Assembly: GCF_965641715.1 (NCBI RefSeq)
Contig: NZ_OZ282454.1
From: Escherichia coli
GTDB lineage: Bacteria; Pseudomonadota; Gammaproteobacteria; Enterobacterales; Enterobacteriaceae
Reading direction: 5' to 3' (one strand)
DNA length: 64,000 nucleotides
Both the position numbers and the translations under genes were made by a program. Of the stretch, positions 26,537 to 60,188 are shown one piece after another. Under the pieces are notes generated by a model. That model did no database searches and was not told the DNA's origin. It saw nothing but the letters and a program-made list of their open reading frames with translations. Every line of letters starts with the position of its first letter. Position 1 is the first letter of the stretch.

Positions 26537-26583
26537 GTCATTATCTCCGTTATCCCCCGGGGATTTTCCCCGGGGGATAAGTC

Positions 26584-29123: not shown

Positions 29124-29542
29124 TACCCGTTCTCCCCGTCCAGCGCCTGACGCATCACCCGCATAATCTCACGTTCTTCCCTGACAAATGCGTCACCGTC
29201 GCCCCCGTTCTCGCACCCGACAGCATGGAGGCGATAAATTTCACTACCAGCCATCACCATCACTTTTTCCAGCAGCACCGCAGGGACTGTTACAAGACGG
29301 TTTACGCGCTTTTCCTCCATCAGTTCATTGACAATATCGGAAACAACTCTGTCACATGCGCCATATACAAAAGCATCGTCCAGCCGCTGCATGACGGTTT
29401 CCAGCTCATCGTCTGACAGGTTCCAGTCCTGAGCCATATGGCGTACATCCCCACGGGTCAGCACTACGGCAAAAACGCATTCACTGTCCGGCACGTCTGT
29501 ATCCAGTACATCGCGGATAATTTCTTTAACAGTACAGTACAT
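29123..29542 (-). CDS. hypothetical protein, paralog of 32231-32698 (possibly DUF1380-like)
   Basis: 139 aa; shares motif NRLVTVPAxLL and acidic character with ORF 32231-32698. Confidence 0.55.
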   Translation of the reverse strand: MYCTVKEIIRDVLDTDVPDSECVFAVVLTRGDVRHMAQDWNLSDDELETVMQRLDDAFVYGACDRVVSDIVNELMEEKRVNRLVTVPAVLLEKVMVMAGSEIYRLHAVGCENGGDGDAFVREEREIMRVMRQALDGENG

Positions 29543-29588
29543 GTTCTCGTCTCCTTTACAGGGGCGGCATTGCCGCCCCGTCCGTTAA

Positions 29589-30014
29589 TCAGTCCAGTGC
29601 CGCATAAATCGCGTTACATTCGGGGTGAAATTCGATGTGGCTCCACAACTGCGCATCACGCATCCTGTACAGGTGTGCCAGCCCTGCGTTACCGCTGTCG
29701 TGGTACAGCCACAACTGGCGGTTAATCACAAGAGACATCAGAATGATGCCTGCGGCATCGGCACTGACCGTGCGGTCAAACCAGTTTTCACCGTTAACCA
29801 GATGAAAACGGTCGCCATCCGGCATCATGTAGCCGCCACCGTCCGGCAGGCGGATGAAATGCCAGAAGCCTCCCTGATATTCCGGCATCATTTTTTTCGC
29901 CAGCGCATACACTGATGCCTCGGCATACAGAAAATCGTTGCCAAACAGGTAAGGCAGAAAAGACAGACGGTCGATTTCTTCAACGTTCAGGGTGACAGAT
30001 TTTGCATACTGCAT
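29589..30014 (-). CDS. klcA: KlcA/ArdB-family anti-restriction protein
   Basis: about 141 aa from MQYAKS; recalled KlcA pattern DRLSFLP...FG...EASVYA...GGFWHF..LPDGGGYM.PD...VNGN...SADAAGI...AIYAALD. Confidence 0.78.
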   Translation of the reverse strand: MQYAKSVTLNVEEIDRLSFLPYLFGNDFLYAEASVYALAKKMMPEYQGGFWHFIRLPDGGGYMMPDGDRFHLVNGENWFDRTVSADAAGIILMSLVINRQLWLYHDSGNAGLAHLYRMRDAQLWSHIEFHPECNAIYAALD

Positions 30015-30120
30015 GGGATTTCCTCCGTTGTTCACATATTCCGCGACATCGGGCGGTGCCGGCGGCGACTTCCTTTGTGCTCTGTCCGGGGACCGGCAGG
30101 AAAAAGGCGGGGATTCTCCC

Positions 30121-31459
30121 CATAAGCGCTAACTTAAGGGTTGAACCATCTGAAGAATGCGACGCCTCGGTGCCTCGTTAAGACGATGCCTCGCGTTCTT
30201 CAATTGCGTTTTGTAGGCTGTCAGGGATACTGTCCCACGAATGGCCACCTGTAAGCTCCAGATGACCATTTTTGTTATTCTCCACAACGAGTTAGTTCTT
30301 CTTTTCGGATCCGGCACTTCTGGGGGGGAAATCCAGCGATGGCTGGATTATGTCGTCAATTAAAAATGCGGCGAGTAGATTAGCAAATATCCACGCTTTC
30401 GCGAGTTCAGGTTCCTTTGCACGCAAAGCATCCAGGTGCAGCAAACTTTTGAGCCGCTTAAAAGCCAGTTCAATTTGCCATCGCAGACGGTAACAATCAG
30501 CCACTTGCTCTGCTGAATATTCATCTTCCGGTAATGATGTTAGCAATAGCACATGGCCCGCTGCTTCCAGCGTTTCCGCCTGAACTACTCGTCCTTTTCG
30601 ACGATTCTCGCTGAGCAGTCGGGTTTTACTGATTAATGCTTTTTCGGGAGGAAGTGATACGGCAATGAGACGTGCCGGAAAGGGAGCTCCGGCTTTTTTA
30701 TTACCTGAATTGCCTATCATTACAGTGGTTTCACCGTTCTTACCGCAATCCAGCCCGCGCAGAAAACCCATCATGTCAAAGCGCATTCCTTCTGCAGTTA
30801 ACCAGCGCAATCCTCGCCAGTGAACCCGGACGATATAATCAGCTTCTCCAAAAGCAAGTGAGCGGATACATTCGGGACGCGAACCGAATCCCCGGTCAGC
30901 AATGCGTATCTCGTCTGCCGTTTGCGCAAATCGGTCCAGCCGTTCAGCGTCTCTGCTGTCGGTTAGCTCAAAATCAGTGAACTGACAGGTATGAGGATCA
31001 TATCCCATATGTAGTCGCCATTCAGCGCTGCCGCCCCCGGGCGCACTGATTGCTGTTCCATCGACAAGACGCAATCTCTTTCCGCTTGTACAACCCGTAA
31101 CTGCGGCGCGTACAGCAAGTGTTTGTGCGGCAAGTATGCCAAACCAGTCGGCGGCATTCCGCAGCCGCTTCAGGAGAGCCACGTCAGATAATGTTGCAAC
31201 GTCATGGAGCTGAGCCCATGCAGTGACTTCACGTAATGACATCCCCCCGGGGCCGTAAGCCAGCCCCAGACGTAGCAGAGTTGCAGCATCACGAATTTCG
31301 CGGCGGCGGGTTAGAGCCCCGGCATTACGTGCCGAAGTATCCAGTTCTTCGGGCTTACCAATATGGGCCAGAATTGCTGACCAGTTATCGTGAGAGTAAT
31401 TCATCGGCACGTTAAATCATATCAGGCGTAATACCACAACCCTTAAGTTAGCGCTTATG
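30121..31459 (-). mobile_element. IS186 (IS4 family), complete, with target-site duplication
   Basis: 1339 bp; terminal inverted repeats CATAAGCGCTAACTTAAGGGTTG (30121-30143) and CAACCCTTAAGTTAGCGCTTATG (31437-31459); flanking direct repeat GGATTCTCCC(C). Confidence 0.9.
30292..31410 (-). CDS. IS186 transposase
   Basis: 372 aa ORF matching recalled IS186 transposase (MNYSHDNWSAILAHIGKPEELDTSARNAGALTRRREIRDAATLLRLGLAYGPGGMSLREV...). Confidence 0.92.
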   Translation of the reverse strand: MPMNYSHDNWSAILAHIGKPEELDTSARNAGALTRRREIRDAATLLRLGLAYGPGGMSLREVTAWAQLHDVATLSDVALLKRLRNAADWFGILAAQTLAVRAAVTGCTSGKRLRLVDGTAISAPGGGSAEWRLHMGYDPHTCQFTDFELTDSRDAERLDRFAQTADEIRIADRGFGSRPECIRSLAFGEADYIVRVHWRGLRWLTAEGMRFDMMGFLRGLDCGKNGETTVMIGNSGNKKAGAPFPARLIAVSLPPEKALISKTRLLSENRRKGRVVQAETLEAAGHVLLLTSLPEDEYSAEQVADCYRLRWQIELAFKRLKSLLHLDALRAKEPELAKAWIFANLLAAFLIDDIIQPSLDFPPRSAGSEKKN

Positions 31460-31477
31460 GGATTCTCCCCGCCATCA

Positions 31478-32185
31478 TCAGCCCCTGATTTTTGCCAGGG
31501 CATCCGCCATGCTGCGGATTTCGACCCGGGCTTCCCGGACAACTTCCCGCAGAACACCACGGTCAAACCACCGGCGGGACGGTTCATCCAGTATACGCAG
31601 CACATCGCAGGCCAGCCCACTGGCCAGGATATGCTCAATACAATCGCTGACCAGATACATTTCCACCGCCGAAAAACGTGCGCCCCGGTTCAGAATGGCA
31701 TCGAGCACCACGGGCAGGTTTTCGTCGTCTTCATCGAGCCAGCAGGGGTGATCGCTTTCCTTCACGACCAGGCGAAAGCGGCGCGTCTGGCGGGTCAGCA
31801 ACGTCTGACCGCTTGTGGTCAGCGCCGCCCGGATACGCCGCGCATCTTCTGCCAGCCATTCGCCGGCATACGGGAAAGACACCTGCGTTTCGTCTGCCGG
31901 AAGTACCGGAAGCGACTGCCACTGACTGCCGGACAGAACAAGTTCCGCTCCGGTTCCGGTCAGTTTCTGAATGGCGGAGGCCAAGTGCGGCGGCAGTACG
32001 CCGCCGTGGCGGTTGATAAGTAACGTCGCCAGCCGGGGCGCATCCAGCCGCACGTAAATGCTGATCCAGCCCGGATACTTCGGGTTCCGCTGGTCAACAT
32101 CCGTCTCTTCCGGCCAGCCCTGCGCCAGTAGCAGGTTACGAGCGTGGCGATAAATCAGTGCATTCAGCGTTGTGTTTTCGTTCAT
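31478..32185 (-). CDS. hypothetical leading-region protein
   Basis: 235 aa ORF ending 18 bp from the IS186 right end. Confidence 0.55.
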
Positions 32186-32230
32186 GATTAATCGTTCTCC
32201 CTGTATCGCCGCCCGCAGGCGGCGATAACA

Positions 32231-32698
32231 TCAGTCGTTTTCGTGTGTGTTGTTTTTCAGCAGGGTGCGGGCCTGATTAACCACCGCCTGACGGCGGGTA
32301 ACGCATTCCGGGACGGCGAGGCCGTAATCACGGGCGGCCCATTCACGTTTCCACAGTGCCTGTTCGGCGGTCTGAATCAGGGACGCCAGCAGTTCAGCCG
32401 GGACGGTCACCAGGCGGTTTTCTCTCACGTTATTGATGATCTCCATCGCCACGCCGGAAGATATACCGGATTCAGTCCGCTGGTCTTCCGGGATGTCCTC
32501 CAGACGCGCCAGGACGGTCCTGATTTCATGATCGGACAGGGAAATATCCATTCCGTCAGCGAGGGCCTGAATCTCTTCCGGGGACCAGATAACCAGCATC
32601 AACGGCGTGTCTCCCGGATACTTTGCTGCCAGCGCCCGGCACAGCGTTTCGCATGTTCCGTACATTCTCATCTCCTTCTCAGTCTTTAAAGCACGCAT
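32231..32698 (-). CDS. hypothetical protein, paralog of 29123-29542
   Basis: 155 aa; shared NRLVTVPAELL motif. Confidence 0.55.
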   Translation of the reverse strand: MRALKTEKEMRMYGTCETLCRALAAKYPGDTPLMLVIWSPEEIQALADGMDISLSDHEIRTVLARLEDIPEDQRTESGISSGVAMEIINNVRENRLVTVPAELLASLIQTAEQALWKREWAARDYGLAVPECVTRRQAVVNQARTLLKNNTHEND

Positions 32699-32900: not shown

Positions 32901-33635
32901 TTACGCAGCCTCCGGCATAAACCAGTCATCATTCGCGGCCCCCTGCTGCATGGGCCGTTGCACGGCGGCAAGGCGTTGCTGCCCGGCACGGTGATACTGC
33001 TCAAGCAGCTCGATACCGATATACCGGCGTCCGGACTGGAGGGCGGCGACGCAGGTTGAGCCGCTGCCTGCAAACGGGTCCAGCACAATTGCGTTCGGGT
33101 GTGTGAAGCTCTCAATCAGCGGTTACAGGCTGGTAACGGGCTTTTCCGTCGGGTGATGGCGATTGCCCGAATATTTCCAGCCCAGCACGTCCGGCGGCGG
33201 GTTTTGTGGCAGACGTGGACGGCCTTTTGCCAGGATGTAGGCGCATTCGTGGCGATAGCCCACATATGCGGCCTTCGATGTGTAGTTTTTGGTGAAGACC
33301 AGGTGACCAACAACGCTGAATCCCGCATTTTTCCAGGCGGCCATAAAGCGATCGGCGCGGTTCCAGCCGTAGAAGCTGACCATCAGCGCATCTTTTTTGA
33401 GTACGCGGAACATTTCATTACAGGCCGGTTGCAGCCATTCATCGGTTTTATCGCCGGCAATGGTACGCCCTGAACGGTCACGGACCCCCACCAGGTAAGG
33501 CGGGTCGGTAAGTATGAGATCAATGGCGTTATCAGGGATACGGGCCATAACATCGATGCAGTTACCGAGGACAAAACGGGACATAACAACTGTATGAACG
33601 CATCCCCGTTTGCAAGGCATCCGTTGTTCTGACAT
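32901..33635 (-). pseudogene. beta-class DNA methyltransferase interrupted by in-frame ochre (TAA) at 33123-33125
   Basis: upstream ORF has DPPY and ...HHPTEKPVTSL; after TAA the same frame continues PLIESFTHPNAIVLDPFAGSGSTCVAALQ (motif I). Confidence 0.75.
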
Positions 33636-33699
33636 CGACGATTAGTTGCAGCTCTGTATCCGGCCTTATTGCAGCCAGAGCTGCGGGCCACTATGAGAT

Positions 33700-35200
33700 T
33701 CGCTGACCTGAGCCTTATTCTCCTTACGGACTTTATATCCCGGCTGTTATTCAGATTTATCAGGTCACGGTCTTACCTGTCGTTGTCATCACTCGGGCCG
33801 CCAGAGCAACCTTTCAGCATTCACCCTTTTGTTAAGAGTTCATTATTTATCGGTATCAGCGATTAATATGGTCTGATACTGACATGGTTCCTGTCATACT
33901 TACGGTCATGGGCAGCTATCGCCCATACTGTTCGTGCCAGCTTGTTTGCCATGGCGACGATAGCCACACTGGCTGGACGACGTTTTTTCAGTTCGGTTAT
34001 CCACGGACCAGGTTCTTTAGTCAGTAATGCTGCCGCCCTTGCGCCATGAATAAACAGGGTTCGCAGATATGTATCACCACGTTTGCTTATCCCCAGCAGG
34101 CGAATTTTCCCTCCTGAGCCAGTCTGTTTGGGCACCAGACCAACATAAGCCGCGAACTCTCGCCCTGATTTAAACGCTGATGCTTCCCCCATGGTGGCCA
34201 CCGCTGCCGTCGCAATAAGTGGCCCAACACCAGGAATATCCAGCAACCGCTTACAGGTCTCATTCTGTTTCGCCACGCTGGCAAGCTGTTTTTCGATGTC
34301 TTCTATCAGGGAGTCCAGCTCATTCAACCGCTTATACTGGTTTTTCAGTACCGTGATGAGATACGGTGGCAGTCTCTCTTTCATTCGTTCCAGTGCTTCA
34401 GGGAACTCCCGCTCCATTGCTGCCCGACCTTTGTGGATGGTTTCACCAAACTCCAGTAACGTCCCGTGTAGGGCGTTAATTTGTGCGATCCGGAACTTCA
34501 CCAGTTGCATGCGGGTACGGTGCAGAACCAGTACCGACTGCTGTTCTTCTGTTTTGACGGCAATTTCTTTACCGGGCTGCTGAACCGCCATCCAGATAGC
34601 CCGGGCATCCATCACGTCGTTCTTGTTTCCCATGACGAATGCCTTAACGAAGCGGGCCTGTAACAAGCGGACGTTATGCCCCAGCTTTGTCAGCTCCCGT
34701 GCCCAGTGCTGAGAGCCTCCACAGGCCTCCATACCAATCAGGCAGGGTTCCCGGTTGCTGAAATATTCAAGAAAATCTCTGCCACGAAGTTGCTTATCCA
34801 CCACTTCACCTGTGTTCTCATCAATGAAGTGAACCTGAATCAGATGTTTTGCGATATCAACGCCAACCGGTGTATATTTCATTTGTGGAGTCTCCAGTCT
34901 GAGGGAACTTTATGCATCCCGTATTGGGCACAATGATGCCGGAAATCTGCGAGGCTCCACACCTCTCTGATTTCCCCCTTTATTCATCACTGTGCTCCGG
35001 ATTTAATGTTGGGGGATGCGTTCATCTCATTCTCCTTCTCTTACAGAAGACACCGGGAGGGCCCCCCTGTGGTGCCCGTTCCCCGCTGCCTGTGGGTTGT
35101 TCACCGCGTCCGGTAACGGGTCAGGCCGACCGTGGAATATCGCAGCCGTCGTCTTTTTGACGGCGAGAATATGCCGTGAAAGCGGCTTGAAGGGCGTTCA
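33700..35200 (-). mobile_element. IS110-family element (boundaries approximate, not determined)
   Basis: transposase gene plus non-coding flanks; this family lacks clear terminal inverted repeats so ends cannot be fixed by eye. Confidence 0.3.
33863..34882 (-). CDS. IS110-family transposase/recombinase
   Basis: 339 aa; MEACGGS...NKND.MDA (DEDD N-terminal) and LLDIPGVGPLIA...GLVPKQ.GSGGK...GISKRGD C-terminal motifs. Confidence 0.85.
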   Translation of the reverse strand: MKYTPVGVDIAKHLIQVHFIDENTGEVVDKQLRGRDFLEYFSNREPCLIGMEACGGSQHWARELTKLGHNVRLLQARFVKAFVMGNKNDVMDARAIWMAVQQPGKEIAVKTEEQQSVLVLHRTRMQLVKFRIAQINALHGTLLEFGETIHKGRAAMEREFPEALERMKERLPPYLITVLKNQYKRLNELDSLIEDIEKQLASVAKQNETCKRLLDIPGVGPLIATAAVATMGEASAFKSGREFAAYVGLVPKQTGSGGKIRLLGISKRGDTYLRTLFIHGARAAALLTKEPGPWITELKKRRPASVAIVAMANKLARTVWAIAAHDRKYDRNHVSIRPY

Positions 35201-35408
35201 TCAGAAAAGGGCGACAGGCTGGCGTACACTGTCACCGACGCCAGCCGGAAGTGGTAAAGGCGCCCGTCCCGTGCCCGCCGGACGCGGGACACTGACCACA
35301 GGCAGCGTTTATGCCGCGCCGCGTCAGCCGGCGCAGTAAAAAGAGGAGCACGGCGACATCCTTTACCGGAAAAGAAACGGGCGGTTGCCCGCCCGTCTCC
35401 GTCATACT

Positions 35409-37576: not shown

Positions 37577-38769
37577 TCGCGACTTGATCTGACACATGAC
37601 CTTGAAAGGTTGAGAGTTACCGGTTTTGATATGGGTGTCGAATCCTTATACAAAACACGAGGTAACTCTCATGCTTCATACTACCAATCCCGTCATCAAA
37701 CACAAAGCCGGTTTGCTCAATCTGGCTGAAGAACTCAGCAATGTATCAAAAGCCTGTAAAATCATGGGCGTTTCGCGTGATACATTTTATCGCTATCGCG
37801 AACTGGCCGATGAAGGCGGTGTGGATGCGCTGGTTAATCGTAGTCGCCGCGCCCCTAACCTTAAGAACCGTACCGATGAGCTAACTGAGCAGGCCGTTGT
37901 CGATTATGCCGTCGCTTTCCCGGCGCACGGTCAGCACCGGACCAGCAACGAGCTGCGCAAACAGGGCGTTTTTATCTCAGGAAGTGGTGTCCGTTCTGTC
38001 TGGCTGCGCCACAATCTTGAAAACTTCAAAAAGCGTCTGAAAGCACTGGAAGAAAAAGTGGCTCGTGATGGCATTGAACTGACCGACAGCCAAATAGCCG
38101 CGCTGGAACGTAAAGCCAGCGATGACGAGGCTTGTGGTGAAATTGAAACCGCCCATCCAGGTTATCTGGGTTCACAGGACACATTCTATGTCGGCAATCT
38201 GAAAGGTGTCGGGCGTATTTATCAGCAAACATTCGTTGATACCTACTCGAAGGTTGCTCATTGCAAGCTGTATGTCACCAAAACACCGATTACTGCGGCT
38301 GATTTACTGAATGATCGTGTGCTGCCGTTTTATGCGTCTCAGGGCCTGCCAGTGCTCAGAATACTGACAGACAGAGGCACAGAATATTGTGGCAAAGTGG
38401 AGCAGCATGATTACCAGCTTTATCTGGCAATAAATGACATCGACCACACAAAAACTAAAGCGATGTCACCGCAGACGAATGGTATCTGCGAACGGTTCCA
38501 CAGGACGATATTGCAGGAATTTTATCAGGTCGCGTTCCGCAAAAAGCTGTATGGCGAACTCGACACATTACAGTCGGATCTTGATGAATGGCTGGCTCAC
38601 TATAATAATGAGCGAACCCATCAGGGGAAAATGTGCTGTGGCCGGACGCCAATGGAAACGTTACTTGATGGAAAGCACATCTGGGCTGAGAAAAATTTAA
38701 GCCAGATGTAATCTGACAGATACCTGTATAAATAACCGGTAACTGTCAGATCAGGTCTGAGCTAATACA
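37569..38769 (+). mobile_element. IS481-family insertion sequence, copy 1 (ends plus/minus about 10 bp)
   Basis: ends TGTATTAGTCGCGAC...GAGCTAATACA; one DDE transposase ORF; identical copy inverted at 48591-49790. Confidence 0.75.
37626..38711 (+). CDS. IS481-family DDE transposase
   Basis: 361 aa; N-terminal HTH; integrase core with SPQTNGICERFHRTILQEF. Confidence 0.85.
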   Translation: MIWVSNPYTKHEVTLMLHTTNPVIKHKAGLLNLAEELSNVSKACKIMGVSRDTFYRYRELADEGGVDALVNRSRRAPNLKNRTDELTEQAVVDYAVAFPAHGQHRTSNELRKQGVFISGSGVRSVWLRHNLENFKKRLKALEEKVARDGIELTDSQIAALERKASDDEACGEIETAHPGYLGSQDTFYVGNLKGVGRIYQQTFVDTYSKVAHCKLYVTKTPITAADLLNDRVLPFYASQGLPVLRILTDRGTEYCGKVEQHDYQLYLAINDIDHTKTKAMSPQTNGICERFHRTILQEFYQVAFRKKLYGELDTLQSDLDEWLAHYNNERTHQGKMCCGRTPMETLLDGKHIWAEKNLSQM

Positions 38770-39016: not shown

Positions 39017-39718
39017 TTATAAGTACATCTGTAATTTATAAATCTCACTAAGCTTTACAGACGGATAATAATAACCTTGCCCCCCCCACAGACTTACATC
39101 TCTAATTTTATCCAGAATATATTGTGATTCAATTCCCTCAGCTATTACTTTTGAACAATGAGTTGAAATGCGCTTTATAATTTCACTGAAGTATTCTTTA
39201 TTAAGCGTTCTATAAAGAAAGTCTTTATCAAGCTTAACCGCCCCAACATCTTGTAATTGAGATATATTTATTTTACAGTTGTCAGCACCAAAATCATCGA
39301 CCCATATATGATTTGTAATATTTAGTAGCTTATTAACAATAATTCTACTATTTTCATGAAAATACGGAAATGTTTCTGATATTTCAAGAGCAATGAAGTC
39401 ATTCTCAATTATAGTTTTCTGAAGTTCCTTACAGTTAAAGATAAAAATGCAAGTATCATAATCAATATTAATTGAGCAAATTAAATCATTTTTGATAAAA
39501 AATGATTTTTGTTCAGCTATGGATTTTATTTGTTGCTGTAGTATATTTATCTTCATTGCTGAAGATAACCTCAGAAATGTATGTTGTGTTGATAATTGCT
39601 CGCCGCTTTGTGTATAAAAGCGACTTAGTACTTCAACAGCAACTAACTTGTTGTTTTTTATATCAACAATTGGCTCAACAATAAAATAAACACCCAAAAT
39701 ACAGCTCCAGTTTATCAT
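39017..39718 (-). CDS. EAL-domain protein (c-di-GMP phosphodiesterase-like, possibly degenerate)
   Basis: 233 aa, AT-rich; EVL in place of EAL, DDFGADN, KLDKDFL, EGIES. Confidence 0.65.
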   Translation of the reverse strand: MINWSCILGVYFIVEPIVDIKNNKLVAVEVLSRFYTQSGEQLSTQHTFLRLSSAMKINILQQQIKSIAEQKSFFIKNDLICSINIDYDTCIFIFNCKELQKTIIENDFIALEISETFPYFHENSRIIVNKLLNITNHIWVDDFGADNCKINISQLQDVGAVKLDKDFLYRTLNKEYFSEIIKRISTHCSKVIAEGIESQYILDKIRDVSLWGGQGYYYPSVKLSEIYKLQMYL

Positions 39719-59255: not shown

Positions 59256-60188
59256 TCAGGCGCTAAACGCTTTTTCTTTATCAAAAGGAACACCTGCATA
59301 CGCCAGTTCGCTCAGCAGCTTGCGTTTCCATCCACCATGTTCATCAAGCTCGGTATAAAGTACGCCTGCGAGATCGGAAGGTATTTCGATGTCACCCTTC
59401 TTGAGTACCAGTACTTTCCCGCGACCAAGTTTCCCCGCGAAATATCCGAGTTCATACAAGACATTTTGACGTGCACGCAGTCGCGTGCTTTCAGATGCCA
59501 AGGCATTCCCGCTATCGTCAGGCGTCATCAGCACGATGGCAAAGCTGACATCTCCTGACTCCGCTTCAAACTTCTCGATAACCGTCCTTGAGCCGTCAGG
59601 GCGTTCAGAAAGTATGATCTCCTCAAGCCCTACACGAGAGATAAAACGGGCAACAGATTGAAGGGCATCATTATCATGGCCATGAACAATAAAAACTTTT
59701 CGGGAAACCGGACGTAGCACTGCTGGCTCAGGAGCGAACTGATTTTCCACATACAACTGGTAATCACGGACGAATGGGACAAGTAATGATGAGGTAAACT
59801 TGCGGACAGATTCAATAACCCTGCGGTCGTAGAAAAATGTATGCCAGAAATTAAATGAAAAATTGTTATCGATCGCCATTTTCTGTATCAGCAGCAACTT
59901 CAAGCCCAAAATATCAGCTGGTTCTTCAGGCCATTGCAGCACAGCGGAACCAGCCATGCTGGATTCAGTATCTCCACTCCTGGCCAGAAAGGCATCAAGC
60001 TCAATATTGCGGGTCAGGCGTTCATTAACTGCCTGCAAGTTATCTGAGTTCAATAGCCGGGCCAGTTGTTTAAGAGGTTGCTGATAGTTCTGAACGTCAG
60101 CGCGCTGAAGATCGAATACGCAATTTTTAAGTGACTGAAAGATATCAATCGCCATCCTGTCCGCTCTCCTGTCTTTGTTGTTCTGCAC
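59256..60188 (-). CDS. protein with C-terminal TIR-like nucleotide-binding domain (Cap12/pfam10137-like) and unknown N-terminal domain
   Basis: 310 aa; residues about 165-300: KVFIVHGHD...IEKFEAE...FAIVLMTPDD...RARQNVLYELGYF.GKLGRGKV..L.KG...PSDL.GV.YTEL; alternative start Met at 60155. Confidence 0.6.
   Translation of the reverse strand: MQNNKDRRADRMAIDIFQSLKNCVFDLQRADVQNYQQPLKQLARLLNSDNLQAVNERLTRNIELDAFLARSGDTESSMAGSAVLQWPEEPADILGLKLLLIQKMAIDNNFSFNFWHTFFYDRRVIESVRKFTSSLLVPFVRDYQLYVENQFAPEPAVLRPVSRKVFIVHGHDNDALQSVARFISRVGLEEIILSERPDGSRTVIEKFEAESGDVSFAIVLMTPDDSGNALASESTRLRARQNVLYELGYFAGKLGRGKVLVLKKGDIEIPSDLAGVLYTELDEHGGWKRKLLSELAYAGVPFDKEKAFSA

Follow-up and report, generated by a model that had tools for sequence, protein, structure and literature searches.

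The 64,000-nucleotide stretch of Escherichia coli DNA that was analysed (the window, 64 kb) carries a complete copy of IS186 immediately upstream of klcA. With high confidence, this copy is a recent, lineage-specific insertion into a natural hotspot hairpin; it is probably in the main a by-product of target specificity, with a probably modest effect on klcA of uncertain sign. The window represents the leading region of an F-like plasmid of the IncFIA/FIB type, with traM and oriT near 17 kb. The leading-region genes all lie on the minus strand and point toward oriT (hok, psiA, psiB, parB-like, ssb, methyltransferase and DUF3560 genes, then a hypothetical gene, a DUF1380 gene and klcA). The klcA product is a predicted KlcA/ArdB anti-restriction protein, matching Pfam Antirestrict (PF03230; 1.5e-25) and the PDB entries 2KMG (KlcA; 1.2e-16) and 2WJ9 (1.5e-08). 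The 235-aa product of the gene on the other side of IS186 has no Pfam or NCBIfam match. In the proposed course of events, an IS186 copy, almost certainly from an E. coli host chromosome, would have transposed into the plasmid by the usual IS4-family DDE mechanism. The transposase would have recognised GGGG(N)CCCC, here the stem of a GC-rich terminator-like hairpin between the 235-aa gene and klcA, and the insertion would have split that hairpin, with duplication of the central part.

The element is IS186 by each criterion tested, namely transposase, ends, full-length identity and target type. The 1337-bp body (ATAAG...CTTAT; 30122-31458, minus strand) is identical to IS186A of E. coli K-12 MG1655 at 1337/1337 positions, with 0 mismatches. 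By other conventions the bounds are 30121-31459, when the 23-bp inverted repeats are included, or 30119-31461, when the adjoining CCC/GGG is counted as element. The canonical 23-bp terminal repeat (CATAAGCGCTAACTTAAGGGTTG) is present at the klcA-facing end and, reverse-complemented, at the transposase-proximal end, within 25-nt arms (30119-30143 and 31437-31461) that are 100% complementary (Table 1). InsL is identical to K-12 InsL1 over 370/370 aa and matches both Pfam DDE_Tnp_1 (1.6e-26) and the NCBIfam model for IS4 family transposases, transpos_IS4_1 (133 bits against a cutoff of 115). Chance cannot account for a transposase gene 100% identical to a known one that is enclosed by a perfect 25-nt inverted repeat and by a 12-nt direct repeat, and the intact reading frame and ends suggest that this copy would be transposition-competent. 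In PGAP annotation the element is named IS421 or IS186B, which are synonyms of one element; 2220 of the 5426 complete E. coli genomes carry it at >=99% identity, at a median of 3 places per genome, and many E. coli genomes have a 100% match. No second IS186 and only a single pair of ends were found in the 64-kb window. A composite transposon bounded by IS186 was considered and rejected, since there is one copy and the target duplication flanks that copy by itself. An earlier note on this DNA, which described a complete and simple IS186 insertion with intact inverted repeats and a target duplication, lying between klcA and its upstream gene, is borne out in these respects by the perfect 23-bp ends, the single copy and the confirmed coordinates.

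Table 1. Coordinates of IS186, its target remnants and the adjoining genes in the window
Feature	Position	Strand	Details
klcA, ArdB/KlcA-family	29589..30014	-	141 aa; GGAGG Shine-Dalgarno 7 nt upstream
Junction of the 298-bp deletion that removed the ~300-nt hairpin	30053..30061	.	comparison with L002 and F
Split terminator remnant, klcA side	30099..30122	-	UGGGGAGAAUCCCCG then CCUUUUUCC on the minus strand; -7.9 kcal/mol
Target-site duplication, klcA-proximal copy	30110..30121	.	GGGATTCTCCCC; direct-repeat search, 100%
IRR, transposase-distal end, toward klcA	30121..30143	-	23 bp; inverted-repeat match
insL transposase gene	30292..31404	-	370 aa; intact; co-directional with klcA
IRL, transposase-proximal end	31437..31459	-	23 bp; inverted-repeat match
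Target-site duplication, distal copy	31459..31470	.	GGGATTCTCCCC; direct-repeat search
Split terminator, distal half, directly 3' of the 235-aa gene stop codon	31459..31477	-	-4.5 kcal/mol; T-run absent
235-aa gene upstream of IS186	31478..32185	-	homologue named 'YubG family protein' in one RefSeq record

The two copies of the direct repeat are identical at 12/12 positions. The length of the duplication depends on the convention adopted: the longest string is 12 bp, whereas 10 bp (GGATTCTCCC) remain with 23-bp inverted repeats, and the core is 5 bp (ATTCT) if, following Lee et al. 2016, the CCC/GGG is counted as part of IS186. The 10-11 bp given previously is thus right under the 23-bp convention but short of the longest string. 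This ambiguity of up to 3 nt arises because IS186 targets always end in runs of G and C. Removal of IS186 and one repeat copy rebuilds the target, GGCGGGGATTCTCCCCGCC, between the end of the 235-aa gene and klcA, 107 bp upstream of the latter. On the minus (coding) strand the target reads GGCGGGGAGAAUCCCCGCC followed by UUUUUCC and begins 5 nt past the stop codon of the 235-aa gene. The rebuilt site folds into a hairpin with an 8-bp GC stem, a 3-nt loop and a T-run (GGCGGGGA-TTC-TCCCCGCC; -15.5 kcal/mol). With a GC-rich stem-loop, a T-run and a position just past a stop codon, the target is terminator-like in form and is regarded here as a putative intrinsic (Rho-independent) terminator. The unsplit form, GGCGGGGAGAATCCCCGCC-TTTTT, is seen in two other plasmid loci (L003 and L004) and in F. 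In the window, the klcA-side remnant keeps the T-run and a 5-bp stem, is weakened from -15.5 to -7.9 kcal/mol and is still found by a promoter/terminator scan. The distal half has lost the T-run, and upstream transcripts should therefore now enter IS186.

The published target of IS186 is 5'-GGGG(N6/N7)CCCC-3', with insertions in both orientations, and the core was 6 nt (n=41), 7 nt (n=16), 4 nt (n=1) or 5 nt (n=1) long in 59 mutation-accumulation sites (Lee et al. 2016, PMC5009759). The target in the window, GGGG-ATTCT-CCCC, fits GGGG(N)CCCC with a duplicated centre, and its N5 core belongs to the rare class (1/59). Only three GGGG-N5-CCCC sites and one N6 site occur in the 64-kb window. In K-12, IS186A occupies a near-twin hairpin, GGCGGGGATCACTCCCCGCC, just after dnaJ, which may be compared with the rebuilt target given above.

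The insertion had been called recent, and comparison with relatives lacking the element had been proposed as the check. Such relatives were found, and IS186 is not present in all of them. The hairpin is uninterrupted in pRHB38-C15_2 (CP057088.1) and pRHB38-C13_2 (CP055625.1), with flanks almost identical to those in the window (2 mismatches over 10,122 bases on the left, 0 over 7,299 on the right). A third empty site is found in the E. coli RefSeq plasmid NZ_JBXSFL010000003.1, which is 100% identical across it. Searches of PLSDB and of 5,426 complete E. coli genomes found no occupied copy of the allele of the window (TTCT); the best junction matches (98.8%) start at query base 32 and therefore come from another flank lineage. 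Going by these comparisons, the insertion is simple, recent and lineage-specific. The multicopy nature of IS186 in many E. coli genomes raises the alternative that a chromosomal copy was mis-joined into the plasmid contig during assembly. A mis-join would not make a target-site duplication; the duplication here is a perfect one of a canonical IS186 target and the flanks rejoin exactly to the empty site of the relatives. An assembly artefact is therefore extremely improbable and was rejected.

Beyond this lineage, the same position has been occupied repeatedly. Among complete E. coli genomes, IS186 junctions at the hairpin were found in the same orientation as klcA in 85 records and in the opposite orientation in 55, while the hairpin was uninterrupted in 4093; IS186 thus occupies the site in ~140 (~3%) of the roughly 4,230 E. 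coli plasmid records that could be scored. These records are non-independent and no orientation bias is read from 85 versus 55. In PLSDB, 103 same-orientation junctions were found, one of them in Shigella sonnei. Six occupied loci were inspected; in all of them the position of IS186 is identical, and both copies of the duplication show the local allele. The duplicated string is GGGATTTACCCC in L001 and L002 (same orientation as klcA) and in L009 (opposite), and GGGATTTTCCCC in L006 (same) and in L007 and L008 (opposite); the string in the window is in the same orientation as klcA. Five sets of allele and orientation were observed (TTCT-same, TTTA-same, TTTA-opposite, TTTT-same and TTTT-opposite), and in each the duplications match. 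With three target alleles and both orientations represented, there were at least five independent insertions, a minimum that is drawn from alleles and orientation and not from records, which are not equivalent to independent events. The insertion is recent in this lineage, but the position is a hotspot and not the scene of a unique event, IS186 having inserted there independently in ~3% of more distant relatives.

Occupancy of the same position in ~140 plasmid records could also be read as the trace of an ancestral IS186 that was lost from the relatives by precise excision. Against this, more than 4000 records, including F, keep an intact hairpin, the nearest relatives are empty, occupied sites show the local allele in both duplicates and are found in both orientations, and the body is identical to the K-12 chromosomal copy. 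An ancestral insertion is accordingly scarcely credible and was rejected on the intact hairpins, the duplicated local alleles and the empty nearest relatives. The preferred reading remains that of recurrent insertion, in which the terminator-like hairpin upstream of klcA is a natural IS186 hotspot in IncF plasmids.

The simple motif does not account for the frequency of hits at this N5 site. Another G4-N5-C4 palindrome, GGGG-ATTTT-CCCC (cccccGGGGATTTTCCCCGgggg; GGGGATTTTCCCC), is present at 26559-26571 between the DUF3560 and methyltransferase genes and is empty in the window. Of 2643 homologous E. coli records, which are ~93% identical and may not conserve the motif, at most 7 show an interruption there. 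Since this palindrome is almost never interrupted, more than the bare motif must matter at the hotspot upstream of klcA, and perhaps the extended GGCGGGGA/TCCCCGCC stem lies behind the preference. In three plasmids (NZ_CP137163.1, NZ_JBWQDP010000002.1 and NZ_JBWGHW010000002.1), same- and opposite-orientation junctions between the klcA flank and IS186 are found ~7 kb apart, which suggests that the region has been duplicated or that an inversion has occurred between IS186 copies.

The consequences for klcA depend on how the gene is normally transcribed. In L001, L002 and F, ~300 nt that are missing from the window lie between the target hairpin and klcA. When the transferred strand is folded as single-stranded DNA, the segment forms a single long hairpin (-84.3 kcal/mol, z = -4.8), with TTGCAT and TAAGAT motifs on one arm facing a small bubble. 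The F segment is 95.6% identical to that of L002 (compare L002 3291-3581 with F, locus L010, 8350-8755), and about 4,483 E. coli records contain the segment at >=80% coverage. In pESBL, a hairpin 5' of klcA has been described as a 'class 2' single-strand DNA promoter with a start site mapped by 5' RACE, and class 2 and class 3 promoters are stated to be conserved in F (PMC12672017). The ~300-nt hairpin in F and in the ~4,483 records is likely to be this class 2 promoter. By analogy, the normal early promoter of klcA would be the class 2 hairpin rather than read-through from upstream. Because this hairpin lies between the hotspot and klcA, IS186 at the hotspot would not sever klcA from it in most plasmids. 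The regulatory argument of the earlier note, which left out expression of klcA from the class 2 hairpin, is incomplete for this reason.

In the window and in the empty-site relatives the ~300-nt hairpin is absent, and a BLAST search of the L002 element against the window recovered the deletion flanks only. The segment was removed by a deletion of 298 bp, the ends of which carry short GCCG repeats; the deletion predates IS186, because the empty-site relatives share it. A sliding 300-nt fold across 17-38 kb identified strong hairpins at ~19791, ~23681, ~25191, ~28531 and ~35041 (-77 to -95 kcal/mol). All five sit in intergenic gaps upstream of operons, where Frpo-type single-strand promoters are expected. 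Between 29.1 and 35.0 kb there is no hairpin of -75 kcal/mol or stronger; one borderline window of -72 kcal/mol falls inside the 235-aa gene. A sigma-70 consensus scan of 29500-32300 found no promoter. A relaxed scan of the IS186 end and the klcA leader gave one weak 8/12 match, inside insL, and no evidence of an outward promoter, and a literature search on outward promoters of IS186 found nothing relevant.

It had been proposed that IS186 separates klcA from a transcript arriving from upstream and could thereby reduce early KlcA expression in recipients. This is possible, though on the doubtful side. The element adds 1.35 kb between klcA and everything upstream and is potentially polar. Lacking both the hairpin promoter and any sigma-70-like promoter in its 107-bp leader or in the adjoining end of IS186, klcA would need read-through, and a terminator-like remnant with a T-run lies between IS186 and the gene. 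However, the site was already the stronger putative terminator before the insertion, and the upstream transcript probably mostly ended there, given the terminator-like form and T-run of the target itself. In addition, the class 2 promoter was already deleted in the empty-site relatives, an IS110-family element further upstream parts the methylase operon from its hairpin, and insL is co-directional with klcA, so that IS-derived transcripts run toward klcA. The proposal is thus plausible in so far as 1.35 kb has been added, but is weakened by the prior terminator, the earlier loss of the promoter hairpin and the direction of insL. The deleted hairpin promoter, the lack of a sigma-70-like promoter, the upstream IS110 element and an in-frame TAA in the methylase gene together indicate that early klcA expression was probably impaired before IS186 arrived.

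The opposite effect, in which IS186 keeps or raises klcA expression, is improbable. A strong terminator would have been destroyed and the insL transcript or read-through would face klcA across a weak hairpin, the two genes being in the same orientation, the proximal hairpin being weakened and the distal half being without a T-run. Against this, the residual hairpin retains its T-run, and both orientations are found at the site in other plasmids, with no sign of orientation-specific selection. Moreover, IS transposase promoters are usually weak, and at the lon promoter, which is an IS186 hotspot in E. coli, insertion abolishes rather than activates lon expression. The effect of IS186 on klcA is thus probably modest, and is uncertain in sign because insL is co-directional with klcA and the klcA-side copy of the terminator is weakened. 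We infer that target specificity, and not selection for a regulatory change, mainly accounts for the insertion. A more speculative and quite unlikely notion is that same-orientation insertions, by destroying the terminator, bring insL directly under an upstream operon whose transcription from single-stranded DNA starts immediately on conjugative entry, with the transposase induced in each new recipient; if true, this would couple the spread of IS186 to plasmid transfer.

Other features of the region were observed in the course of the analysis. The IS110-family element (33591-35031; transposase 33863-34882, minus strand) lies 5 bp upstream of the start codon of an M.EcoGIX-like methylase gene and separates it from the single-strand hairpin at ~35041-35340 (-78 kcal/mol), which may be a class 3 promoter. 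The orphan methylase gene itself (~32901-33585) contains an in-frame TAA at ~33125 (minus strand; …AGC CTG TAA CCG CTG…) and has probably become a pseudogene, both in this lineage and in CP057088.1. IS481-family transposase ORFs at 37626-38711 (plus strand) and 48649-49734 (minus strand) have identical Pfam profiles (domains, scores and coordinates) and are inverted with respect to each other. Between them lie an EAL-domain gene (39017-39718), a TibC-like heptosyltransferase gene (43550-44725) and an AIDA-type autotransporter adhesin gene (44725-48588), a layout that resembles a composite transposon, and the window diverges from CP057088.1 at 38770. A 310-aa protein encoded at 59256-60188 (minus strand) carries a CAP12/Pycsar-effector TIR domain (Pfam, 3.4e-37) and is a possible anti-phage defence effector on the plasmid.

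By itself, the finding of a canonical IS186 in a canonical target type is routine mobile-element annotation. The leading-region terminator hairpin of F-like plasmids is, as a recurrent IS186 landing site, usable as a lineage marker, and recurrence at the hairpin also warns that plasmids with an IS at the same position need not share ancestry. Within the leading region of this plasmid, the anti-restriction part is eroding, through deletion of the klcA hairpin, a nonsense codon in the methylase gene and insertion of IS110 and IS186. The lineage would offer a natural test case for the weight of early klcA and methylase expression in transfer.

The leading region of F and pESBL (PMC12672017) has the gene order of the window (methylase, hypothetical, DUF1380, 235/258-aa gene, terminator, klcA, DUF1380, hypothetical), with those genes all transcribed toward oriT in both. 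In the window, unlike F/pESBL, the ~300-nt hairpin 5' of klcA has gone with the 298 bp, there is a nonsense codon in the methylase gene, an IS110-family element stands between the methylase and its upstream hairpin, and IS186 splits the terminator. IS186A/B/C of K-12 (IS421; IS4 family) share body, InsL, 23-bp inverted repeats and target type with the copy in the window, which differs only in its location, the IncF leading region, and in a core of 5 nt rather than 6-7. The target type of IS186, its hotspot behaviour and its insertion in both orientations are already known, whereas a recurrent natural N5 target at a putative leading-region terminator was absent from the literature searched, in which no paper was found naming IS186 together with klcA. 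The fimA and menC hotspots (Lee et al. 2016, PMC5009759) share with the site upstream of klcA the GGGG(N)CCCC motif, repeated hits at one position and both orientations. Compared with fimA, menC and lon, the hotspot upstream of klcA is found on conjugative plasmids, in natural isolates rather than laboratory lines, and has an N5 core; unlike them, it coincides with a terminator-like hairpin between two early-expressed leading-region operons.
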